Shown piece after piece: positions 5,983 through 26,612 of a DNA stretch of 32,000 nt. The notes beneath the pieces are model-generated. The model ran no database searches. It was not told the DNA's origin and was given only the letters and a program-made list of their open reading frames with translations. Numbering within the stretch: position 1 is the first letter of the stretch; each line of letters begins with the position of its first letter. The position numbers were made by a program, and so were the translations under genes. The stretch comes from Methanopyrus sp. SNP6 (GTDB lineage: Archaea; JAADCQ01; Methanopyri; Methanopyrales; Methanopyraceae): contig NZ_CP019436.1 in NCBI RefSeq assembly GCF_002201895.1, positions 759,619 through 791,618 of the forward strand. Direction: 5' to 3'.

Positions 5983-6150
5983 TCGTTTTACCCACGAATG
6001 TACGAGGTCGTTAAAATAGAAGGCGTGTCATGACGAGGGTGTGGAGTTCCTAAAGCGCGATCCGTGTTCACGAGATGGGCACAGCGTTGTTCGATCTACT
6101 TCGAAAAAGTTAAAAGGCGCGTAGCGGACGAGGATCGAGGGGGTCCGAAT

Positions 6151-6537
6151 ATGGACTTCGAGGAGTACCTCGAGAAGTGGTTCAAGGGAGAAACTACCGA
6201 AGTGGGTATCTATATGGCGATGGCTATCGTCGCTAGAGAACAGGGTTATCCCGAAGTAGGTGACTTGCTGGAGCAAATCGCCATGGACGAAGCCAGACAT
6301 GCGGCCGCAGCGGCACTGATAGCAGGTAAAGTAGAGAACAGTCTAAAGGGACTGATCGAGAAGATGGAGGAGATGATTGAAGGTGAGAAAAACGCCTACG
6401 AGACCAGGATGGACGAGGCCGACCACCACTCCGATGAGCTGGACGACGAGGTTATCACCCTGCTGAAGGCCACAGCATACGACGAGAGGCACCACAGGAA
6501 GATGCTCAAAGCGGCCCTAGAAAAGCTGAATGAGTAA
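6151..6537 (+). CDS. Rubrerythrin/ferritin-like diiron four-helix-bundle protein (no rubredoxin domain)
   Basis: Two E...ExxH pairs are present (ETTEVGIYMAMA..MDEARH and EGEKNAYE..YDERHH). The likely start is ATG 6151, with an A/T-rich block about 40 nt upstream. The track start at 6064 adds a basic, non-conserved-looking extension. Confidence 0.7.
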   Translation: MDFEEYLEKWFKGETTEVGIYMAMAIVAREQGYPEVGDLLEQIAMDEARHAAAAALIAGKVENSLKGLIEKMEEMIEGEKNAYETRMDEADHHSDELDDEVITLLKATAYDERHHRKMLKAALEKLNE

Positions 6538-6603: not shown

Positions 6604-7373
6604 TTGAGGTACGTCGACGCGCACGTACACCTCGACGTTAGGAGTTACGAAAACATCGAGAAGATGGCTTTATCTGGAGTCCGAACTGTCATCACGTGCT
6701 CTCACGATCCCTACCCTGACATGACGGCCGAAGTGTACTCCGCCCTCTTTCGGAGGCTACTCAAAGTGGAAACGTGGAGAGGCAGAAAGGCAGGGCTAAC
6801 GGTCAGAGTGGCAGTGGGAGTACATCCGGGAGGAGTACCGGATAACGTGAGTGACGTGCTACGGGAAATCGAAGATCTCCTAAGTTATGATGACGTCGTA
6901 GCGATCGGAGAGACAGGTCTCAACGAAAATCCGGACGATAGAGATCCGAGCCTTAAAGGTCCAGCTGGAGTTAGCCCGAGAATACGAGGTACCCATCATT
7001 GTCCACACGCCGAGCAAGAACAAGGTTGGAATCACCGAGAAGGTGTTGGATATCTTGAATTCCTCGGGTATAGATCCATCACTGGTGTTAGTGGACCACG
7101 CCTCGGCGGAGGACCGTCCAGCTAATCGGTGAGGAAGGGTACGCGGTTGGGCTGACACTCCGACCGGGAGAGCTCGACGTGTGGGAAGCGTGTGATATCG
7201 TAGAGGAGTACGCCGACGAGGTGACGCTCATCGCGAGCAGTGACCTGGGATCACTAGCCGCCGATCCACTCGCTCTCCCCAAGCTAGCCCTCGAACTGGA
7301 ACGCCGGAACGTCGAGAAAGGCGTTATCCGGGACGTTACAGCCCGGAACGCCAAGAGGTTTTACGGGCTCTAA
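6604..7373 (+). pseudogene. TatD-related TIM-barrel metal-dependent hydrolase interrupted by two +1 frameshifts
   Basis: The frame from 6604 reads MRYVDAHVHLD..VVAIGETGLNENPDD and then degenerates. The next frame, from about 6941, reads EIRALKVQLELAREYEVPIIVHTPSKNKVGITEKVLDILNSSGIDPSLVLVDHASAED and stops at TGA 7130. The third frame, from about 7116, reads VQLIGEEGYAVGLTLRPGELDVWEACDIVEEYADEVTLIASSDLGS..ARNAKRFYGL*. The track shows only fragments 6604..7125 and 7179..7373. Confidence 0.7.
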
Positions 7374-7593: not shown

Positions 7594-8349
7594 TTGCGCT
7601 TCGCCGCGCTCTACTCACATCCGTTCGGTAAGAGGATGATAGCCAATCTACTGAACGAACCCGGTCACTGCAGAGCTTGCGGGCCTGCATGCGACGGATG
7701 CAAGTACGACATGTACTCCCTCGTCGACTCCCTTGTCACCGTTGAGAGGATACCTAAACCGGAGGAGTTACCATCGTTCATCGACGAGCCAAAGAACTAC
7801 CTCCCAGAAATACCACCAGTAGATGTTCTTGTGGTGATCGGATTGCACCCAGACCTCCTTGTAGCGTTACCCAGAGTGTACAAAATCAAGGCACTGATAG
7901 TACCCGTCGAGGAACCCGATTGGATCGACCCGTGGATCGAGGAGAAACTACGAGAGGTGTGCGAAGGAGACGGCGTGGAGCTCACCGTGGCGAGGCCAGG
8001 GTGCGACCTGGAACCGTCGGGTCCCGTAACCGAGGCGTTCTGCGACGCGGGCATGATCGGGAAGCCTAAGCTGTTTATGAAGGTCGAGGACGGCGTCGTG
8101 ACCGACGTCAACGTAGTACGATCGGCGCCATGCGGTTGCACGTGGTTCGTGGCCAAACGACTGGTCGGTGTGGACGCTGATCCCGAAGAGGTGAAGGCTA
8201 CAGTTTCCGAGACGCACCACTCGTACCCCTGCACGGCTTCGATGGAGGTCGACAAGCACGTCGGGGACACCCTGCTCCACGTAGCGGGACGGTTGCACAT
8301 CAAGGCGGCTCTCCGAGCGCTCGAAGAAGCGATAGATACCGACACCTGA
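7594..8349 (+). CDS. Cys-rich conserved archaeal protein, DUF166-like (a family sometimes labelled archaeal thymidylate-synthase-like)
   Basis: 251 aa with a TTG start. Motifs are CRACGPACDGCKY, SAPCGCTWFVAKRLVG and HHSYPCTASM. The family assignment is from memory and moderately uncertain. Confidence 0.6.
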   Translation: MRFAALYSHPFGKRMIANLLNEPGHCRACGPACDGCKYDMYSLVDSLVTVERIPKPEELPSFIDEPKNYLPEIPPVDVLVVIGLHPDLLVALPRVYKIKALIVPVEEPDWIDPWIEEKLREVCEGDGVELTVARPGCDLEPSGPVTEAFCDAGMIGKPKLFMKVEDGVVTDVNVVRSAPCGCTWFVAKRLVGVDADPEEVKATVSETHHSYPCTASMEVDKHVGDTLLHVAGRLHIKAALRALEEAIDTDT

Positions 8350-8357
8350 TAGGCATC

Positions 8358-8786
8358 TCACTCCTCTCCTGGTACTCTCTCCAAAACTTCCCGGAACAGT
8401 CTCCACTTATCCTCGTATAGATTGTACTCCCTGCGTACGTCGTCCTCGACGTCTTCGACTCTGTAACCCACGGGATAGTACGTCGAAACAAGCTCTCCGT
8501 TTCGGCGCTTTGGTCTCAGTTCTATTTCACCCAGACGGAGCAGATCGAAGACAGCTTCCTTCACATCGACGGAGAAGTAGGGTGCCTTGAGCAGTATGCA
8601 GTGACCGTATTCAGTTCCCGTCAGTGGTCTTCCGGTCTCACGCTCGAAAGCTTTGTCCAGTAAATACACCGCACGGAACAGGGAGCGCTTGTCTAGACCG
8701 GGCCGGAACGCGACGATGTACTTCACCAGAGGCCGCAGGTTAGCGTCCGTCGGTTTGACCTTGTGACACCTGCATCGGGCATGCAA
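8358..8786 (-). CDS. Hypothetical protein; weak resemblance to DUF4065/Panacea-type domain plus a C-terminal winged-helix-like segment
   Basis: I prefer TTG 8786, which is preceded by GGGGGAG 6 nt upstream. The open frame continues to 8900 and 9191, but that part is antisense to the cooS N-terminus. The core reads LFRAVYLLDKAFERETGRPLTGTEYGHCILLKAPYF. The start is uncertain. Confidence 0.5.
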   Translation of the reverse strand: MHARCRCHKVKPTDANLRPLVKYIVAFRPGLDKRSLFRAVYLLDKAFERETGRPLTGTEYGHCILLKAPYFSVDVKEAVFDLLRLGEIELRPKRRNGELVSTYYPVGYRVEDVEDDVRREYNLYEDKWRLFREVLERVPGEE

Positions 8787-8847
8787 TCGAGGCTCCCCCT
8801 CGTATCGGTGTGTTCGGAAGTACTCAAACGTTTGATGAAAATCGAAA

Positions 8848-8857
8848 CTAATATAAG
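8848..8857. promoter_or_regulatory. A/T-rich near-palindromic TATA-like element (CTAATATAAG) between divergent cooS and the 8358..8786 gene
   Basis: It is the only A/T-rich block in the divergent region. It lies about 70 nt upstream of the cooS GTG (8925, with GGGGAG 5-9 nt upstream) and about 60 nt upstream of TTG 8786 on the other strand. Confidence 0.35.
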
Positions 8858-8924
8858 TCGAGCTACCCTCATAACGGTCGAATAATGTCGAACATTCCAA
8901 CAGTACCGAACAGGGGAGATCCCC

Positions 8925-10841
8925 GTGGAAGAGAAGAAACCTTCGTGTCCGTACACTGATGAAGTCGTATGCGAACTGGTCGAGCACGCGAAGGAGCTGA
9001 ATGAGGAGATACCGAGTGTAGAGACCCCACATATCCGATGGCCAGTTCAGTTCCCGAAATGCCCGTATGGCAAGCAGGGCGTTTGGTGTAACATCTGCTC
9101 GAACGGCCCGTGCCGGATCACGGAGAAGACGCCACGAGGTGTCTGCGGAGCGACGGCGGACGTGATCGTAGCACGGAACTTCTTGCGTCACGTCGCCGCC
9201 GGAGCCGCCTGCTACTTACACTGCCTGGAAAACGCCGCCAGGGCCTTAAAGTCCGTAGCGGACGAGGAATCCCCTTACGAGATCGCGGACGAGAAGGCGC
9301 TGAGGCACGCTGCCGAAGTTTACGGTCTAGATGCATCAGGTAAACCGGAAGACGTGGCCGAAGAGATCGCGGAGTTCATCCTCGAGGACATTTACAGGCC
9401 GAGATACGAGGAATCGGAAGTGTTCAAGGCGGTTGTGCCGGATTGGCGTATCGAGATGTATGAAGAAATGGGTCTAATTCCGGGCGGAGCTAAGTCGGAG
9501 GTACACGACGCACTCGTCAAGACAAGTACGAACCTCAACTCAGATCCCTTAGACATGCTCCTCCACGTGCTGCGGCTGGGACTGATCACCGGACCTGTTT
9601 CGCTCTTCGGAGTGGAGACGATCAACGATATCCTCTTCGGTAGCCCGAGGATCACGCAAACGGAGGGTGGTCCCGGAATATTGGATCCGGACTATGTCAA
9701 CATCATGACCACCGGTCACCAGATGTCTCTCATGAAATACCTAACGGACGCCGCCGAGAGGCTGGAAGAAGAGGCCAAGGCGGCAGGCGCTAAAGGCATC
9801 AGGATCATCGGTGCGACGTGCGTCGGTGACGATTTCGAGGCACGTGCCGACCACCTACCGGACACGTACGCGGGTTTCGCGGGCAACAATTTCGCTACGG
9901 AGGCACTCGCAGCGACGGGTCTCGTGGACGCGATCGTGAGCGAGTTTAACTGCACGTTCCCAGGTCTGAAGTTCTACGGTGAAAAGCTGGACGTTGAGCT
10001 GATCGCAGTCGACGACGTGGCTAAGGTGTGGGGAGCAAAGCTGATCTTATGGGACCCGGAGCGTGCCGAAGAGGTCGCGGAGGAGGCCGTCCGGAGAGCT
10101 ATAGAGGCGTTCAAGGAGCGGAGGTCGAAGCACGAAGATAAGATCCTAGAGCCGGAGCATAAGCACGAGAACGTGGTCGGGTTCGGATACTTCTCGATCG
10201 AGGAGGCGGTAGGTTGGGAGAACGTTCTCAAGCTGATCGAAGAGGGCACCATCCGCGGAGTGTGCGCCATCGTGGGTTGTACGAACCTCTCCAGCGGCGG
10301 CCACAACGTGCCGGCGGTCGAACTCGCAAAGGAGATGATCAAGCGCGACGTGCTCGTGCTCGGTGCAGGTTGTGTGAACGGAGCGTTCGCCAATGCTGGA
10401 ATGTTCAACCCTAAGGCAGCCGAGCTGGCCGGTGATAACCTCAGGAAGGTGTGCGAGGAGTTGAATATTCCACCGGTACTGCATTACGGCCCGTGTTTAG
10501 CGATCGGTAAAGTCGAGCATCTCGTTTTCGAGATCGCAGAGATACTTCGAGAGAAAACAGGTGAGGAAATCGACATACCGGACGTACCCGCCGTTGCGAG
10601 TGCGCCGCAGTGGCTCGAGGAGCAAGCCCTAGCGGACGCGTCCTCGGCCCTAGCTCTAGGTATCACGCTGCACGTGAGCCCAGTGCCGCCAGTGACCGGT
10701 AGCGAACTGGTTACGAAGACGTTGCTGGAAGACCTACCGGACCTCACCGGCGGCGAGCTGATTGTAGAGACGGACATGAGACGGGCCGGAAAGACCCTAG
10801 CCGATAAGATCGAAGAAAAGCGGAAACGGCTCGGTATCTAG
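8925..10841 (+). CDS. cooS: Ni-dependent anaerobic carbon monoxide dehydrogenase catalytic subunit (CooS type)
   Basis: 638 aa. The N-terminal Cys clusters read CPYGKQGVWCNICSNGPCRI..RGVCGATADVIVARNFLRHVAAGAA. Later motifs are TTGHQ, IIGATCVG and IVGCTNLSSGGHN. Size and layout match CooS rather than the roughly 800-aa CdhA. Confidence 0.9.
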   Translation: MEEKKPSCPYTDEVVCELVEHAKELNEEIPSVETPHIRWPVQFPKCPYGKQGVWCNICSNGPCRITEKTPRGVCGATADVIVARNFLRHVAAGAACYLHCLENAARALKSVADEESPYEIADEKALRHAAEVYGLDASGKPEDVAEEIAEFILEDIYRPRYEESEVFKAVVPDWRIEMYEEMGLIPGGAKSEVHDALVKTSTNLNSDPLDMLLHVLRLGLITGPVSLFGVETINDILFGSPRITQTEGGPGILDPDYVNIMTTGHQMSLMKYLTDAAERLEEEAKAAGAKGIRIIGATCVGDDFEARADHLPDTYAGFAGNNFATEALAATGLVDAIVSEFNCTFPGLKFYGEKLDVELIAVDDVAKVWGAKLILWDPERAEEVAEEAVRRAIEAFKERRSKHEDKILEPEHKHENVVGFGYFSIEEAVGWENVLKLIEEGTIRGVCAIVGCTNLSSGGHNVPAVELAKEMIKRDVLVLGAGCVNGAFANAGMFNPKAAELAGDNLRKVCEELNIPPVLHYGPCLAIGKVEHLVFEIAEILREKTGEEIDIPDVPAVASAPQWLEEQALADASSALALGITLHVSPVPPVTGSELVTKTLLEDLPDLTGGELIVETDMRRAGKTLADKIEEKRKRLGI

Positions 10842-10861: not shown

Positions 10862-11974
10862 ATGGTGATGGTCATGGAGATCGAGGCGATCCGTATCGCA
10901 ACGGGAGCTCCTGGCGATCTGTATATGGTGGCAGAAATCGCGGAGGGCGAGGTTGTAAACGCCGAAGTGTGCTCTAGTACGACACCAGTCTCCTGGGAGA
11001 CGCTCGTCCTCGAGAAGCCCGTGGAGTTCGCCGTGGTAGCAGCCGAACGAGTATGCGCCAGCTGTGACGCGAGTCTAGGGCTCGCCGTAGCCGAGGCGGC
11101 CGAGGCGGCTCTTGACGTCGAGATCCAGGACGAAGCAGAGCGAGCGCGTGAGATTCTGAACATGGCTAACATCGTCAGGGCACACGCCACCGTGCTGGCG
11201 AGGACCGACTTCATCAACGTGAAGAAGCCAGCATACGACCTGGTAAAGGCAGCGAAAGACATCATGCATGCCGTCGGAGGAAAGCCAGATCACCCACCGG
11301 CCGTGACCGTAGGAGGTATGAACATCGAAAGGCTACCCGTAAACAGGATTGAATCCGTAGCCAAAGATGCCGCCGATGTAGCAGACAGGCTCGAAGACGA
11401 GGTCGGATTCGAGGTAGATCGGGCGGAGGAAGGTATCAATGTGGAGACTGAAGAGGTACCGACGGGACTGAAGGTTTCGGATACATACAAGGGCGACATA
11501 GATCCAGACAAGGTCGAGGTTCTAATGCCGGACGAGTTCTACCGGATGAGAACCACCCTGAAGATAGCGAACAACGTCGTCGCCAGGTATGACGGGGAAC
11601 CCGTCCTCGTCGGTCCTTACGCCCGAGTAAGGAGAGTGGAGAACCCGCTAGACCTCTACACCGTCAGGGCCGAGGAAATAGCGAGGATGCTCGACGGTAT
11701 CGCAAACGCCACATCCGGGCTAGACCCGACCGGGAACTTCCGAACGGACGTCGAGCTCGGCTCGGGAGTGGGTACGGCGGCCGTGGAGGCACCAGAAGGT
11801 ACTCTGATCGTCTCGCTGGAACTACGGGCGGGGCGCGTGGATAAAGCCCTGATGCTAACACCATGCAACTTCAAGGTTGCGGCGGTCGTGGAGATGGTAC
11901 GCGGCCTGACGGTTGACGGGGCTGAAACCGTTCTGCGCGCGGTCGGCCTCTCCGGTAGATGTCTTACTCACTAG
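10862..11974 (+). CDS. [NiFe]-hydrogenase large-subunit-like protein (FrhA-like) with a degenerate active-site ligand set
   Basis: 370 aa. The N-terminal motif ERVCASCDASL replaces RxCGxCxxxH (CxxC kept, His lost). The C-terminus ..VGLSGRCLTH* replaces DPCxxCxxH, with Ser at the first Cys position, and the protein ends exactly at the His. Confidence 0.8.
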   Translation: MVMVMEIEAIRIATGAPGDLYMVAEIAEGEVVNAEVCSSTTPVSWETLVLEKPVEFAVVAAERVCASCDASLGLAVAEAAEAALDVEIQDEAERAREILNMANIVRAHATVLARTDFINVKKPAYDLVKAAKDIMHAVGGKPDHPPAVTVGGMNIERLPVNRIESVAKDAADVADRLEDEVGFEVDRAEEGINVETEEVPTGLKVSDTYKGDIDPDKVEVLMPDEFYRMRTTLKIANNVVARYDGEPVLVGPYARVRRVENPLDLYTVRAEEIARMLDGIANATSGLDPTGNFRTDVELGSGVGTAAVEAPEGTLIVSLELRAGRVDKALMLTPCNFKVAAVVEMVRGLTVDGAETVLRAVGLSGRCLTH

Positions 11975-11986
11975 GGGGAGCTCGAA

Positions 11987-12712
11987 GTGAAGGTGGCTGT
12001 TCTGTCCCTTATGGCTTGTGGTGCATGCGCCAGGAACCTGGAGGAGTGTTGCTACGAAGATGGTCATGAGATAGTCTGGTCGAGCCTAGATGGCGACGAA
12101 GGAGAACCGGACGCCGACGTTCTGTTCGTAGAAGGCTCGGTGGACTTTGCCGACGCCGAGACCCTGGAGAAGTTAGAGGAGGCGGCTTCAGCCGCCAGCA
12201 CTGTGGTATCACTGGGCTCCTGTGCTGCCACCGGAGGTTTCGAGCGACACGTTATAGGCATGCGCGATCCCGACAGACACCACTTTACGGTCTTCCCAGC
12301 CGCCAAATTCATCGACACGGACTATGCTATCAACGGCTGCCCACCCACTACTGACGTGATCGCATCCTTCCTCAGAGCGCTAGAGGAGGGGAACGAGGAT
12401 GAACTCCGGCCGTACGAAGTCCTGTCCGGGGATTTCCACGAGCTTACACCGGAGTCATCCCAAGTAACCGGTCCGACGATACCGGTCGAGGACGTGCTCC
12501 TGACGTCGAACAAGGACTTGTGCTTAGGCTGTGACTTAGACGTGATTGAGAGAGATCTCTTCTGCGTTGGCTGCGGAACGTGCGCCGCCTCCTGTCCGGC
12601 GTGGGCCATCGAGATGGACGAGAAACCAGTGATCCAACAAGAGAGATGCATTCGGTGCGGAACTTGCTTCGTGAGTTGTCCTAGATCGTTCGAGATCCCC
12701 AATGGGAGGTGA
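11987..12712 (+). CDS. [NiFe]-hydrogenase small-subunit-like Fe-S protein (FrhG-like) with a C-terminal 2x[4Fe-4S] ferredoxin domain
   Basis: 241 aa. The proximal-cluster ligand pattern is MACGAC, LGSCAATGGF and INGCPP. These are followed by CVGCGTCAASCP and CIRCGTCFVSCP. Confidence 0.8.
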   Translation: MKVAVLSLMACGACARNLEECCYEDGHEIVWSSLDGDEGEPDADVLFVEGSVDFADAETLEKLEEAASAASTVVSLGSCAATGGFERHVIGMRDPDRHHFTVFPAAKFIDTDYAINGCPPTTDVIASFLRALEEGNEDELRPYEVLSGDFHELTPESSQVTGPTIPVEDVLLTSNKDLCLGCDLDVIERDLFCVGCGTCAASCPAWAIEMDEKPVIQQERCIRCGTCFVSCPRSFEIPNGR

Positions 12713-12715
12713 TCT

Positions 12716-13627
12716 ATGTTGCGCAAACTGATCCGAAAAATGGTGAATAAAAACAAAGATGAACCCACAAAGAACGACCCCCTGGACTCCGAGATCGTAG
12801 GTAAGTACCGTGAAATCTACTTAACCAGAGCAACGGACGAACTCATTCGCGAGCGCGGACAGGACGGAGGTACCACTACTGCGCTGCTAGCCCACGCGTT
12901 GGAGAAGGGTACGGTGGAAGCCGTAGTCACTTCGACTACCACAACAGAAGCTTGGAAGCCCGAGCCCGTGATCGTCACCGATCCAGACGAACTAATCGAG
13001 ACAGCCGGATCGAAGTACTCAATCTCTCCAAACGTTAGCGTCCTCGACAGGGCCATAGCTTCGTATGACTCAGTAGCCCTCGTAGGGACGCCGTGTCAAA
13101 TTACCGCAGTGAAGAAGTCGGAGGTGTACCCTTACGGAATGACCAGCGTGATGGATAGGGTGGAACTGACAGTCGGTATCTTCTGCACCGAGAACTTCCA
13201 GTACGAGAACCTACTGAAGTTACTTGAAGATATAGAAGTAAGCATCGAGAACGTCGAGCGTATGGACATCAGTCGTGGTAAATTCGTAGTAAAAACCGAG
13301 GACGGTGATGAACGGTCGGTACCGGTTTCCGAGCTAGGCGATTACGCCAATGAAGCGTGTAACTACTGCACGGATTTAACGGCTGAGGACGCAGACGTCA
13401 GCGTGGGATCCGTAGGCGCGCCAGACGGGTGGAATATCGTCCTGATTCGAACGAAGAGAGGCGAGAAGGTGTTCCGATCCGCCGTAGACGACAACGTCCT
13501 AGAAGTCAAGGGTATCGGAGAAGGGGATCCGAACCTGCTCGAGAGACTGGCCAGGGACAAGAAGAGGCGCATTCATACCTCAGTGTGTGCCACTTGGAGG
13601 CCCTACCACCCAAACATTCCATTATAA
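12716..13627 (+). CDS. FrhB/FdhB-family F420-interacting flavo-Fe-S subunit (FrhB-like)
   Basis: 303 aa with family hallmarks RGQDGGTTTALLAHALEKG, GSKYSISPNVS, VGTPCQITA, VGIFCTENF and CNYCTDLTAEDADVSVGSVG. Confidence 0.85.
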   Translation: MLRKLIRKMVNKNKDEPTKNDPLDSEIVGKYREIYLTRATDELIRERGQDGGTTTALLAHALEKGTVEAVVTSTTTTEAWKPEPVIVTDPDELIETAGSKYSISPNVSVLDRAIASYDSVALVGTPCQITAVKKSEVYPYGMTSVMDRVELTVGIFCTENFQYENLLKLLEDIEVSIENVERMDISRGKFVVKTEDGDERSVPVSELGDYANEACNYCTDLTAEDADVSVGSVGAPDGWNIVLIRTKRGEKVFRSAVDDNVLEVKGIGEGDPNLLERLARDKKRRIHTSVCATWRPYHPNIPL

Positions 13628-13650: not shown

Positions 13651-14115
13651 GTGATAGGACCGCGGGACTTCCTGAGGTACTTCCTCTTCTCTTACATAGT
13701 CACCTCTGCACAGCTGCTTGGAGATAAAGCTCCAACTCTGCGGCGAATGGTATGCAAAAACGCGGTAAAGGCGTTACTGCGCGAGCATCCGGAGCTGAAA
13801 GACGTTGAGCCTGTAGAGCTTGTCAAAACTGTGGCAGAGAGCCTTCTAGGGGCAGACGTCAGGGTAGATGAGAAGTCGGAAGAAGCAGTCGTACATGTGA
13901 GAGGGTGTGAGATCTGCCCTCGCGATCTGATCGAAGAGTTCGTAGGCGAAAACCCCAGCTTAGAAGGTCACATCTTCAGCTACAACGTGTGCGCGTTTGC
14001 GACTATGGCTGAGGAGGTTCTGCACGCTCTGGATTATGATTTCATCATCGAACACGAACCGATCAAACGCGGGCACTGCCGCGTAATCGTCAAGTCTAGG
14101 GATACTGAGAATTGA
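13651..14115 (+). CDS. Small V4R-like (4-vinyl-reductase-type) domain protein, divergent
   Basis: I place the start at GTG 13651, which has ATTATAATTC 25-30 nt upstream. The track start at 13429 lies inside frhB-like. The architecture VVHVRGCEICPRD..HIFSYNVCAFATMAEEVL..EPIKRGHCRVIVKS parallels the V4R domain of the next gene. The family call is tentative. Confidence 0.5.
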   Translation: MIGPRDFLRYFLFSYIVTSAQLLGDKAPTLRRMVCKNAVKALLREHPELKDVEPVELVKTVAESLLGADVRVDEKSEEAVVHVRGCEICPRDLIEEFVGENPSLEGHIFSYNVCAFATMAEEVLHALDYDFIIEHEPIKRGHCRVIVKSRDTEN

Positions 14116-14678
14116 TCTCCAGTTGACGTCCCTACGTCTCCTCAAAGTGACCTGGGAGGTAGGTGTTATCGGCACGTGAACACGTCAGATACGGGTTACT
14201 GAGGCATCGGCCCGCGCGCTACCCTCGATCGACTCCTAGGGAAACGGTACGATTTTTTCCGTCCGTCTAAAGAACGTTCGAAGTTCCTTCCCCGCTCGAT
14301 GGGGAAGTCTTGAGCTCGTCGTCAGACCTCCGCCGTCTTCGTCGTGCTAAAGACTTCTCAGGACTCGGGAGTCATCCTGGCGGGGCTAGGGACAGTAACT
14401 ACTGTGACATGGTTTCGGTTACATTGAAAATCGAAGTCGAACGGATCACTCGGAAAACCACGGGCGATGATCCGACTTGTACTGGGAGCTTGAATCCTGC
14501 TAGGCAGTACCGATCGGTGGGCGGTTGTTTAACCTTGGATAAAGAAGATTAGGATAACGACGCGTTGAGGACGGGTATCTGTTAACCTGATGAGACGAGT
14601 CTGGGACCCGGTTTGGGCAGGGGGCACCCGAGCTGACGGCGCGGCTCGACGGTCGGAACCTTCAAGGGGGTCCGAGCT

Positions 14679-15416
14679 ATGAAGTTGATGATTAACGTGC
14701 CGAAGGAGATCGCAAAGGCTTTGGACAGCAAAACGCGGCGTGAGATTCTGAAACTGCTGGAAGAACGCGGATCGATGACTATATCGGATATCGCCAAAGA
14801 ACTGAACATGTCCAAATCGACTGTTCATCACCATTTGCAGGAACTCCGAAAGGTCGGTCTCGTGGACGTCATTAAGGAGGACCGCGAAACTCCACTCCCG
14901 AAGCGTTACTACGGGCTAGTGAGGAGACCCGTCCGAGTGTCGGAACCGAAGCTCGAAGACGCGTCCAAATACGTCATGAAAGTCCTAGAACGTGGGGAAG
15001 ATCTGGGAACGTCGATGGCACTAGTGATCGCGGCCGCATATCGCGCGGTGTTGGAATCGCTGGGTATTGACGCTTCGGAGGTCCTGTACGAGCTCGGAAA
15101 GGAGGTCGGTAAGCGACTAGCGGAACTGGAACCTGGGGAGGACGTGCTACGGAAGGGCTTAGAGATCATAGCAGAGTCAGTGGAATTCCGTCAGGAGGAC
15201 GACCGTGTGGTGGTCGAGATTGAAGGATGTCGAGAGTGTTCCGACCTACCCTACGGCCCCGCATGTCATCTGGAAGCGGGAATAATAGCTGGTGTTCTGT
15301 CGAGTTTGAGGGAACTAACTTACGAAGTCCGAGAGATAGAGTGCTGCGGAGAGGGCGCTCATAAATGCGTGTTCGTGGCGGAGCCAGCTACTGGCGAAGA
15401 ACACCCCAGGTCCTAG
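14679..15416 (+). CDS. ArsR-type winged-helix transcription regulator fused to a V4R domain
   Basis: 245 aa. The N-terminal HTH reads RREILKLLEERGSMTISDIAKELNMSKSTVHHHLQELRKVGLV. The C-terminal V4R pattern reads VVEIEGCRECSD..PACHLEAGIIAGVL..EIECCGEGAHKCVFV. Confidence 0.75.
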   Translation: MKLMINVPKEIAKALDSKTRREILKLLEERGSMTISDIAKELNMSKSTVHHHLQELRKVGLVDVIKEDRETPLPKRYYGLVRRPVRVSEPKLEDASKYVMKVLERGEDLGTSMALVIAAAYRAVLESLGIDASEVLYELGKEVGKRLAELEPGEDVLRKGLEIIAESVEFRQEDDRVVVEIEGCRECSDLPYGPACHLEAGIIAGVLSSLRELTYEVREIECCGEGAHKCVFVAEPATGEEHPRS

Positions 15417-15750
15417 TGACTTTGGACACTCCCTCTACCCAGGCGACCAAGGCTAGTGTTGCAGCTATCTCCTCGTTGGTGACTTCAGCTACGTTCTTCG
15501 CTGTCTCGGCAATGAGGTTTACTCTACGCTCGTCTCCGGCAGCCGCCGCCAAAGCTAGTGCGATAAGGTGTTTCGTCTTGTTGTCCAACGGAGATTCATT
15601 CCACACTATTCTATGAAGCTCCTCAACGACCTCCGCGTACTCGTCTCCTAGCATCTCTTCGGCGTACTTCACGGCTATCAAACCTTTTTCCTCCTCCCTC
15701 TCGGCCGGTTCGCCGGGCTTCCTAGACAACGGCAGCCCCCCGCACGCCAT
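15388..15750 (-). CDS. Carboxymuconolactone decarboxylase / AhpD-like family protein
   Basis: 120 aa with the core SPLDNKTKHLIALALAAAAGDE typical of the CMD/AhpD fold. The 3' end overlaps the convergent regulator gene by 29 nt. Confidence 0.75.
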   Translation of the reverse strand: MACGGLPLSRKPGEPAEREEEKGLIAVKYAEEMLGDEYAEVVEELHRIVWNESPLDNKTKHLIALALAAAAGDERRVNLIAETAKNVAEVTNEEIAATLALVAWVEGVSKVTRTWGVLRQ

Positions 15751-18500: not shown

Positions 18501-19274
18501 TTGAAGAAACCCGTCGACGCTCATTGTCATCTTTGCTTCGAACACTTCAAAGGCGAGGAAGACGAAGTGGTGGAACGGTCACGGAAGAAGGTGTTACGTG
18601 TGTACGATTGCGGGGCTACTCCTGGAACCGCACGGCGGACCCTAGAGTTAGCGGAAAGATTCGAGGGGTTCGTGTTCCCCACGATCGGACTCCATCCTCC
18701 ACGAGCGCCGAGGATGCAGCAAAGCGTCATCGATGACGTGGTCCGAATTATCCGTGAGCATACCGATAGGATTGCGGCAATCGGAGAGATAGGTCTTGAC
18801 TATTACTACGTGAAGGAACCAGGAGAGCGCAGGAAGATGCGAGAGATCTTCGAGAGGTTTCTGAAGCTCGCGGAAGAGCTCGACAAGCCGGTAGTGATCC
18901 ACGCCAGGGATGCGGAGGAGCACGCCCTCGAGGTCCTGGAGGGCTACGACGTAGTTGCCATGTTCCACTGCTACGACGGGTCGGCCGAGCTCGCTCGGCG
19001 TATCGCGGACGCCGGCCACTACGTTTCACTGTCGACGATTCACGTCATTCGTGGATCGAAGGATGAGAGAACGCGGGAATTGCTGGAGACGGTACCGTTA
19101 GGAGCGGCGCTTACGGAGACGGACAGTCCGTACCTGTCACCGGTGCGGGGAGAACGCAACGAGCCTCGAAACGTGTGGAGGATAATAGAGCTGCTTGCGC
19201 GAGTGAAAGGAGTTCCCGTCGACGAGGTAGTTGAGACCACAACTCGTAACGCGTTGGAGTTCTACGACCTATGA
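18501..19274 (+). CDS. tatD: TatD-family metal-dependent hydrolase (intact)
   Basis: 257 aa with a TTG start. Motifs are VDAHCHL, IGLHP, AIGEIGLDYYY, VVIHARDA and TETDSPYL. Confidence 0.85.
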   Translation: MKKPVDAHCHLCFEHFKGEEDEVVERSRKKVLRVYDCGATPGTARRTLELAERFEGFVFPTIGLHPPRAPRMQQSVIDDVVRIIREHTDRIAAIGEIGLDYYYVKEPGERRKMREIFERFLKLAEELDKPVVIHARDAEEHALEVLEGYDVVAMFHCYDGSAELARRIADAGHYVSLSTIHVIRGSKDERTRELLETVPLGAALTETDSPYLSPVRGERNEPRNVWRIIELLARVKGVPVDEVVETTTRNALEFYDL

Positions 19275-19310: not shown

Positions 19311-19441
19311 CCGTGGCGGCGGCCACAGCGGCCGGGGCCACACCCGGGCCACATCTCGAACCCGGAAGTTAAGCCCGGCCGCGTCCCGGGTGGTACTGCG
19401 CTCCGAGAGGGCGCGGGAAGCCCGGGATGCCGCCGCCGCTG
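19311..19441 (+). rRNA. rrf: 5S ribosomal RNA
   Basis: It contains the conserved 5S core ..CCACACCCGG..CUCGAACCCGGAAGUUAAGCC..GUACUGCGCUCCGAGAGGGCGCGGGAAGCC... Terminal helix I forms between GUGGCGGCGGC (5') and GCCGCCGCCGC (3'). Ends are good to +/-3 nt. Track ORF 19231..19485 is an artefact of this gene. Confidence 0.9.
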
Positions 19442-20839: not shown

Positions 20840-20913
20840 TGGCCCCGCCGGGATTTGAACCCGGGCTACGGGCTCCGCAGGCCCGCGTCCTATCCAGGCT
20901 AGACTGCGGGGCC
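20840..20913 (-). tRNA. tRNA-Arg (anticodon GCG), no intron, CCA not encoded
   Basis: Hand-folded cloverleaf: GGCCCCG-CA-GTCT-AGCCTGGATA-GGAC-G-CGGGC-CTGCGGA-GCCCG-TAGC-CCGGG-TTCAAAT-CCCGG-CGGGGCC-A. All four stems pair. Position 8 is C. Confidence 0.95.
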
Positions 20914-25085: not shown

Positions 25086-25100
25086 ATCATCCCCGCCGCT

Positions 25101-26612
<1,512 letters not shown>

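Follow-up and report, generated by a model that had tools for sequence, protein, structure and literature searches.

A diverged F420-hydrogenase large subunit encoded beside cooS in Methanopyrus and its possible place in an F420-linked CooS enzyme

Does a hydrogenase-like large subunit encoded directly behind a carbon monoxide dehydrogenase gene still belong to a hydrogenase? This question is raised by a locus of Methanopyrus sp. SNP6 (assembly GCF_002201895.1, contig NZ_CP019436.1, positions 759,619 to 791,618 of the forward strand); the whole stretch of 32,000 nucleotides that was analyzed is called the window below. In the window the gene cooS, for the catalytic subunit of a nickel-dependent carbon monoxide dehydrogenase (Ni-CODH), is followed by three genes that we term frhA', frhG' and frhB', after the genes for F420-reducing hydrogenase that they resemble. 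Judged by its sequence, FrhA' is a diverged homologue of the group 3a F420-hydrogenase large subunit. It is very unlikely, given the residues that it has lost, to carry a standard NiFe(CN)2CO site. On balance, and with considerable doubt, we favor the view that it serves as a non-hydrogenase subunit with a repurposed pocket in an F420-linked CooS enzyme.

The open reading frame of frhA' (10862-11974, + strand) encodes 370 amino acids from its first ATG and ends in TAG. The true start is probably the ATG at 10874, giving a protein of 366 amino acids, because homologues begin with MEI or MEV and a Shine-Dalgarno-like GGTGAT lies at 10864-10869; residue numbers used here count from the first ATG. 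The best PDB match found with phmmer is FrhA of M. marburgensis (4ci0_A, E=2.9e-21), in which residues 15-386 align with residues 18-370 of FrhA', and both sequences finish there. Profile PF00374 (NiFeSe_Hases) recognizes FrhA' with 30.6 bits (cut-off 25.8) over residues 46-123 only, and TIGR03295, the NCBIfam equivalog model for FrhA, gives 121.4 bits, less than one third of its cut-off of 392.5, so the equivalog level is not reached. An AlphaFold2 (AF2) model of FrhA' (predicted local distance difference test, pLDDT, 73; predicted template-modelling score, pTM, 0.78) superposes on FrhA structures with TM scores of 0.76-0.79, the value of 0.79 being that to 9r51_A (Foldseek). All of the best matches are FrhA or other group 3 proteins, and none points to an ancestry in group 4. 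The lineage is an isolated one, since a profile search of 1.84 billion representatives returned a single cluster of the FrhA' family at 649 bits and then dropped to 119 bits for the next match. Likewise, a search of 5.8 billion proteins found only nine clusters of FrhA' at 90% identity, which are 53-100% identical to it and, where named, are labelled Methanopyrus.

What sets FrhA' apart are the motifs that surround the active site, which we compared in 15 Methanopyri and 6 Methanocaldococcus sequences linked to cooS (21 in total) and in an alignment with 89 other group-3-like large-subunit representatives. In the N-terminal motif L1, where FrhA has RICGVCPIPH, FrhA' has RVCASCDASL, in which both cysteines (Cys1 and Cys2) are present, the glycine is lost and the histidine is replaced by leucine. 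In the C-terminal motif L5, DPCLSCATH (ending at residue 386 of FrhA) corresponds to GLSGRCLTH (ending at residue 370 and followed directly by the stop codon); Asp-Pro has become Gly-Leu and Cys3 has become serine, while Cys4 and the histidine remain. The codons are TCC for Ser364 (11951-11953), TGT for Cys367 (11960-11962), CAC for His370 (11969-11971) and TAG for the stop (11972-11974). Motif RGLE is reduced to SWE with its glutamate (Glu46) retained, and we take this glutamate and the terminal histidine to be ligands of the Mg/Fe site. The remnants that can be placed by alignment, together with an additional cysteine, are these:

10970-10972, + strand: Cys37, within the 9-mer that ranks fifth in conservation in the family
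11054-11065, + strand: Cys65-x-x-Cys68, remnant of the L1 motif RxCGxCxxxH, by alignment to FrhA
11786-11800, + strand: E309-A-P-E312-G313, remnant of the L4 motif EAPRG, which reads EAPEG with Arg changed to Glu, as it is likewise in Methanocaldococcus
11945-11974, + strand: GLSGRCLTH and TAG, remnant of the L5 motif DPCxxCxxH and the most conserved 9-mer of the family

These alignments bear out most of a preliminary description of the locus, which had recognized a hydrogenase large-subunit paralogue that retains three of four [NiFe] cysteines, a CxxC kept beside a His-to-Leu change, and at the Cys3 or selenocysteine position a serine specified by TCC and not by TGA. It had also held that the reading frame ends at the cleavage histidine without a propeptide, and this is corroborated by the two FrhA structures: 4ci0_A (386 amino acids) stops at the final histidine, and 3zfs_A, an otherwise identical sequence of 405 amino acids, is 19 residues longer. 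The loss of the upstream RxEGH block, whose glutamate is presumably the proton-relay residue next to the terminal cysteine, stands as well, but the remnant had been placed three residues off, at IATGAP; the block aligns with G15-A-P-G-D19 (GAPGD), in which the motif is gone.

The changes are uniform within Methanopyri and rare elsewhere, as the following comparison of the 15 Methanopyri FrhA' sequences with the 89 other representatives indicates:

L4 Arg (EAPRG): Glu in 15/15 Methanopyri FrhA'; Arg in 83/89 others
Glu of RxEGH: Pro in 15/15; Glu in 67/89 others
Asp-Pro before Cys3: Gly-Leu in 15/15; Asp in 81/89 and Pro in 83/89 others
L1 His: lost in 15/15 (Ala, Leu, Ser or Pro); His in 82/89 others
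Cys3: Ser in 15/15; Cys in 84/89 others

Each of the four canonical cysteines is kept in 83-88 of the 89. Because these cysteines and the L4 arginine are nearly invariant among the other representatives, the pattern in FrhA' is a real departure and not ordinary variation. The conservation of the serine in all cooS-linked Methanopyri homologues, a check that the preliminary description had proposed, is thus complete. Cys1, Cys2, Cys4, Glu46 and His370 are retained in all 15 sequences, and Cys37 is invariant in all of them as well, at a position where canonical FrhA has Phe or another residue. The cysteine of LTPCNF had been named as a residue that might structurally replace the missing ligand and so overturn the reading of a degenerate site; it is serine in 9 of the 15 sequences and was ruled out as a replacement, and that reading survives.

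The missing propeptide and the missing frhD, which the preliminary description had seen as fitting together, carry little weight. Several group-3-like subunits (P0013, P0017, P0019-21, P0024 and P0025) have all four cysteines, yet end at the same histidine, so the lack of a propeptide alone says little. The absence of frhD is not diagnostic in Methanopyri because the canonical locus, too, has fruA followed directly by fruG and fruB, with no fruD between the genes. At this locus, which by its sequence encodes a true hydrogenase elsewhere in the class, the canonical FruA (P0016; L020 5001-6245) contains an in-frame TGA for selenocysteine (Sec) at the Cys3 position (6159-6161), its C-terminus reading CYD-I-TGA-A-S-C-A-A-H before an extension of 22 amino acids. 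The selenocysteine occupies exactly the position of Ser364 in FrhA'. Gene callers shorten this Sec-containing FruA to 386 amino acids.

The genes around frhA' are those of an electron-transfer chain that would lead from a CooS to coenzyme F420, and they comprise the following in the window:

8925-10841, + strand: cooS, Ni-CODH catalytic subunit of archaeal clade C-3 (TIGR01702, 722.7 bits)
11987-12712, + strand: frhG', small-subunit/ferredoxin homologue (TIGR03294, 142 bits, below the cut-off of 245.5)
12488-12535, + strand: EDVLLTSNKDLCLGCD, signature insertion of FrhG', found in Methanopyri and Methanocaldococcus loci and not in canonical FruG/FrhG
12716-13627, + strand: frhB', F420/flavin adenine dinucleotide (FAD)/[4Fe-4S] subunit (PF04432 and PF04422; NF006807, 345.7 bits, above the cut-off of 269)

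The gaps between the genes are short: 20-32 nt between cooS and frhA', 12 nt between frhA' and frhG', and 3 nt between frhG' and frhB'. As we read it, alignment of CooS to PDB 6t7j finds every ligand both for the C-cluster and for the B-cluster. The acid-base pair is replaced, His93 by Tyr (AACYLH) and Lys563 by Gln (EEQALAD), and the second D-cluster cysteine is Trp (GVWC), as against GVYC in Methanocaldococcus and GVCC in bacterial relatives; CooS of the window and of Methanocaldococcus thus has a single D-cluster cysteine. Group C-3, which is exclusively archaeal and was reported from Methanocaldococcus and Methanotorris (Inoue et al. 2019, PMC6344411), is characterized by the same His93-to-Tyr and Lys563-to-Gln changes and by one cysteine in the D-cluster region, and all of these traits are found by alignment in the window CooS and likewise in that of Methanocaldococcus. 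FrhG' has 13 cysteines that align with those of canonical FruG in both lineages, four of them serving the proximal cluster and the other nine lying in the ferredoxin domain, which is enough for proximal, medial and distal [4Fe-4S] clusters. FrhB' matches the FrhB structure 3zfs_C with 229.6 bits. A short C-terminal tail with a conserved cysteine (SVCATWRPYHP in the window, 12716-13627; NKCSAYFAVCP in L004, 10577-11362) is present in FrhB' of both lineages and not in canonical FruB.

The same arrangement is found outside Methanopyri. Relatives of CooS about 54% identical occur in Methanocaldococcus with the same three genes downstream, and the order cooS-frhA'-frhG'-frhB' is kept in every examined locus of sufficient extent, about 19 in all, which belong to two archaeal classes. 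The assignment of frhA' to an Frh complex, on which the preliminary description had relied, accordingly gives way to a linkage with CooS in every locus. The Methanocaldococcus FrhA' has only 298 amino acids and begins at the RGFE motif, in which the glutamate of RGxE is retained; the whole N-terminal beta segment, including RxEGH, is deleted. Its L1 reads RLC(C/Y)LNEISH, with Cys2 changed to Asn in 6/6 and the histidine present, and its L4 reads EGGEG, with Arg again changed to Glu, so that Glu stands here in 21/21 cooS-linked sequences. Its C-terminus, QLCERCYYL followed by the stop codon, keeps Cys3 and Cys4 and ends at the position of the histidine, which is Leu. A different Ni ligand has therefore been lost in each lineage, Cys3 in Methanopyri and Cys2 in Methanocaldococcus. 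Common to both are the Arg-to-Glu change, the Arg that precedes Cys4 and the point of termination, and both have in FrhG' the insertion [DE]VL[LV]TSNK[DE]LCLGCD, found neither in the canonical FruG of Methanopyri nor in the solved FrhG proteins. These shared derived characters, above all the insertion, support a single origin of the cooS-linked module in Methanopyri and Methanocaldococcus. In a neighbour-joining tree of 110 large subunits the two kinds of FrhA' form one clade, with 27% bootstrap and a risk of long-branch attraction, and by pairwise scores the FrhA' of each lineage is nearer to canonical FrhA than to that of the other lineage.

Isolated departures at the same positions occur among a few other group-3-like sequences of the metagenome library. 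P0045, from an unnamed single-member cluster, has Cys3 changed to His, Cys4 to Asp and Arg to Glu, and P0048, also from an unnamed single-member cluster, has Cys4 changed to Trp. P0018, in which Cys2 is Asp, was considered as the cooS-linked form of Methanocaldococcus and was ruled out by the large protein database search as a stray FrhA variant of Methanobacteriaceae; its cluster has two members and bears the label coenzyme F420 hydrogenase subunit alpha, from a metagenome-assembled genome of Methanobacteriaceae.

Selection has acted unevenly on the four genes. When the window was compared with four Methanopyri loci, the ratio of non-synonymous to synonymous substitution rates (dN/dS) was 0.05-0.06 for cooS, 0.06-0.10 for frhG', 0.12-0.17 for frhB' and 0.15-0.21 for frhA', the last being 3-4 times the cooS value. 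Identities to the most distant Methanopyri locus run in the same order (CooS 88%, FrhG' 80%, FrhB' 64%, FrhA' 53%). The gene frhA' is under purifying selection and is the least constrained of the four. Among the 15 Methanopyri FrhA' sequences 127 of 370 positions are invariant, and the most conserved 9-mers are GLSGRCLTH (L5), WETLVLEKP (L2), AAVEAPEGT (L4), EFAVVAAER (flank of L1), VNAEVCSST (Cys37) and HPPAVTVGG (L3). Because the former active-site shell is the most constrained part of the protein, FrhA' appears not to be merely a dead relic.

In the reading that we favor, FrhA' would have arisen from the large subunit of a group-3a [NiFe]-hydrogenase and would have given up H2 activation. 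Together with FrhG', which would hold three [4Fe-4S] clusters, and FrhB', with FAD, a [4Fe-4S] cluster and the F420 site, it would form the electron-transfer and F420 module of the adjacent CooS, the catalytic subunit, which as a clade C-3 enzyme would have lost the D-cluster, its normal exit cluster. Electrons would pass between the C- and B-clusters of CooS, FrhG', FrhB' and F420, in either direction. CO oxidation with F420 reduction would be the thermodynamically easy one, the coupling being exergonic because the E0' of CO oxidation is about -520 mV and that of F420 about -340 to -380 mV (PMC4652020); the main alternative would be a reductive detoxification at the CooS cluster with F420H2 as the donor. 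FrhA' would be retained as the obligatory partner of FrhG', with a pocket of Cys65, Cys68, Cys367, the invariant Cys37, Glu46, Ser364 and His370 that is remodelled and still strongly conserved. The occupant of this pocket is probably one metal ion or a small cofactor, whose role might be structural or that of an electron relay next to the proximal cluster. The sequences themselves show the homology, the lost motifs, the conservation, the synteny, the retained cluster ligands and the purifying selection; we infer the formation of the complex, the direction of electron flow and the occupancy of the pocket.

Several points weigh against this reading. Only Cys1 and Cys4 are common to both lineages, a pattern that decay of the site would explain as readily as its rebuilding. 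The AF2 model is of moderate quality and has its lowest confidence in the pocket motif segments; the segment of Cys37 is also among the low-confidence segments, which otherwise coincide with those motifs. The canonical Ni-Fe site is buried, and a passage of electrons from CooS through it is hard to place; the docking site of CooS may instead be the FrhG' ferredoxin domain, which would leave the proximal cluster and FrhA' off the path. CooS may also have a substrate other than CO, since the acid-base residues, His and Lys, are replaced by Tyr and Gln and little is documented of CO oxidation by clade C CooS (PMC13056359). Finally, among sequencing runs holding frhA' only DNA and metagenome runs were matched, and no RNA runs were found.

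The main rival to a repurposed pocket is a pure scaffold, in which FrhA' would contain no metal or cofactor, FrhG' would need a partner in order to fold and to shield its proximal cluster, and CooS would attach at another site, such as the FrhG' ferredoxin domain or the insertion common to both lineages. A role of this kind has a precedent in NuoD, a subunit of complex I. We consider this a serious possibility, if the less probable one. The loss of different cysteines in the two lineages speaks for it, as do the 298 amino acids and the missing N-terminal beta segment of the Methanocaldococcus protein and the fact that FrhA' is the least conserved subunit, with 53% identity in a genome pair whose CooS proteins are 88% identical and with the highest dN/dS. 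An unused pocket would be expected to drift, however, and the former motif segments are the most conserved parts of FrhA', with three canonical cysteines, Cys37, Ser364 and His370 invariant despite divergence to 53% identity. The dead scaffold of the preliminary description is upheld insofar as a standard NiFe site is very unlikely, and as a plain scaffold it appears too simple.

Alternatively, the repurposed pocket may be an electron-entry port, in which the three thiolates build a new metal centre that joins the B-cluster of CooS to the proximal cluster of FrhG'. To complete the centre, Cys37 might serve as a further ligand, or, in trans, the lone D-cluster cysteine of CooS. The result would be a CO:F420 oxidoreductase on a hydrogenase chassis, which could feed F420H2 to the neighbouring O2-defence enzymes FprA, rubrerythrin and peroxiredoxin when the true hydrogenases are inhibited. 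We offer this version as a speculative and rather improbable one.

A working hydrogenase with unusual ligation, be it a CO-oxidizing, H2-evolving or an H2:F420 enzyme, is the literature's view of the M. jannaschii operon, for which hydrogenogenic CO metabolism was suggested (Diender et al. 2015, PMC4652020). The fold, the CxxC, Cys4, the terminal His and the RGxE Glu are retained, the small subunit is complete, and a missing propeptide is compatible with an intact four-cysteine site, as in P0013, P0017 and others. Nevertheless, such an enzyme is decidedly unlikely: each lineage is short of one Ni ligand, Glu stands in place of the L4 Arg in 21/21, the RxEGH motif has Pro for its Glu in Methanopyri and is deleted with its whole segment in Methanocaldococcus, the lost positions are almost invariant among the 89 other group-3 representatives, and the TIGR03295 score is below one third of its cut-off. 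A decaying, functionless pseudogene or an annotation artefact, which the faster evolution of frhA' relative to its neighbours and the frameshifted TatD-like gene nearby might suggest, was rejected on dN/dS and conservation and is extremely improbable, for about 20 loci, spread over two archaeal classes, have an unbroken reading frame, dN/dS is only 0.15-0.21 with 127/370 positions invariant, and the tight spacing to cooS and frhG' suggests translational coupling.

The genes that flank the cluster offer an indication of its role. The conserved neighbours of the Methanopyri loci lie in the window as follows:

6064-6537, + strand: rubrerythrin, upstream
6604-7370, + strand: TatD-like gene, upstream, frameshifted in the window
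7594-8349, + strand: DUF166/DfsP gene, upstream
13651-14115, + strand: 154-amino-acid protein without Pfam match, downstream
14679-15416, + strand: ArsR helix-turn-helix (HTH) plus V4R regulator, downstream
15388-15750, - strand: CMD/AhpD-like gene, downstream

In one Methanocaldococcus type the cluster lies within a run of oxygen-defence genes, among them those for desulfoferrodoxin, rubredoxins, ferritin, peroxiredoxin, rubrerythrin, an FprA-like flavodiiron protein, flavoproteins and a hybrid-cluster protein, with TatD and DUF166 in addition; in another type an Ogg-type glycosylase follows frhB'. Because oxygen-defence neighbours recur, this setting suggests a role of the cluster that is connected with oxidative stress. 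No membrane-protein genes were found within the conserved cluster.

Some further features of the region are recorded here. The TatD-like gene lies in three frames (6604-6945, 6941-7111 and 7113-7370), that is, with two frameshifts that make it a pseudogene or reflect a sequencing error; its intact homologue in L017 has 256 amino acids, and a second, unbroken TatD gene is present in the window at 18501-19274. The match between the DUF166 gene and the NCBIfam model "DUF166 family (seleno)protein DfsP" is weak, at 65 bits against a cut-off of 200, and DUF166 and TatD-like genes are linked to the cooS cluster in Methanopyri and in one Methanocaldococcus type. An open reading frame of 277 amino acids on the minus strand (8358-9191) overlaps the start of cooS; the conserved gene there has only about 140 amino acids (8367-8786), no Pfam match, and the same place in other Methanopyri loci. 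The 154-amino-acid protein is kept in all Methanopyri loci, and its cysteine pattern (GCxxC...C...C) resembles by eye the V4R domain of the nearby regulator. Between these two genes, related Methanopyri loci carry an AGOG 8-oxoguanine glycosylase (L017 9301-10029), for which tblastn found no match in the window, a gap of about 560 bp (14116-14678) lying there instead. RNA genes of the window are a 5S rRNA (19315-19438, +), a tRNA (20840-20913, -) and a complete archaeal 16S rRNA (25100-26612, -). Protein matches indicate that the window comes from a Methanopyrus species distinct from the source of P0002 and P0281 (88% identity).

The gene neighbourhood itself has already been published. Matson et al. 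[quoted passage not shown] The degeneracy of the alpha subunit is, as far as we found, apparently unreported: no statement that it lacks hydrogenase site residues was found in a search that left out subscription reviews, in which an earlier remark is possible, and nothing was found on MJ0725-MJ0728. Taken together, the published "CODH plus hydrogenase" cluster probably specifies a CooS enzyme coupled electronically to coenzyme F420, and no hydrogenase. Should its alpha subunit indeed be something other than a hydrogenase, then the inference of a hydrogenase that works with the CODH in hydrogenogenic CO metabolism would be wrong, and the uncharacterized archaeal clade C Ni-CODH would gain a specific, testable function. 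The oxidative-stress setting suggests, moreover, that in strictly anaerobic, hyperthermophilic methanogens oxygen defence is connected with F420H2 and with CO or whatever else CooS may use as its substrate. If our reading is correct, this would be, as far as we found, the first soluble, group-3a-derived pair of hydrogenase large and small subunits reused as a non-hydrogenase redox module, the earlier known cases of reuse being complex I and Mbx/Mbs.

Known systems compare with the cluster as follows. The FrhA/FruA proteins of group 3a (PDB 4ci0, 3zfs, 4omf and 9r51; TIGR03295) resemble FrhA' in fold, in the types of their G and B partners, in the N-terminal CxxC, in the last cysteine and in the terminal His of the mature enzyme. 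They differ in that FrhA' has Ser at Cys3, Glu at the L4 Arg, Pro at the RxEGH Glu, GL at DP and no propeptide, and in that its gene is always linked to cooS, whereas theirs belong to a stand-alone frh operon. The His-terminating four-cysteine group-3-like subunits are, like FrhA', without a propeptide, but their RxCGxC and DPCxxC are intact. NuoD/Nqo4, FpoD and MbxL/MbsL are large subunits derived from hydrogenases that have lost the Ni-Fe ligands, are paired with a small subunit that keeps the proximal cluster, and reuse the pocket; their ancestors are membrane-bound group 4 enzymes, and they are located on membrane arms. FrhA' is like them in having lost Ni-Fe ligands and in pairing with a FrhG' that would keep the proximal cluster, and unlike them in its origin from soluble group 3a, in a cluster without membrane genes, and in its tie to CooS and an F420 subunit.

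Among CODHs, the F420-reducing enzyme of Ca. Ethanoperedens thermophilum (Cdh alpha-epsilon-zeta), the structure of which was solved and the CO:F420 activity assayed (PMC11493965), is the only precedent; it likewise connects a Ni-CODH by way of Fe-S clusters to an FrhB-type FAD/F420 subunit, an arrangement that in our case is predicted from the genes. It is of the Cdh type (clade A), however, and it uses a single zeta subunit with a ferredoxin domain of its own; unlike the frhA'-frhG' cluster, it has no homologues of the large and small hydrogenase subunits. Bacterial clade C CooS proteins (PMC6344411, PMC13056359), which are 47-50% identical to CooS and have the same Tyr/Gln replacement of the acid-base pair, likewise have a flavin oxidoreductase as partner, connected by Fe-S proteins. 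In bacteria the two D-cluster cysteines (CC) are kept and the partners are CooF and an FAD-NAD(P) oxidoreductase (FNOR), whereas the archaeal C-3 enzyme, with one D-cluster cysteine, is accompanied by FrhA', FrhG' and FrhB'.

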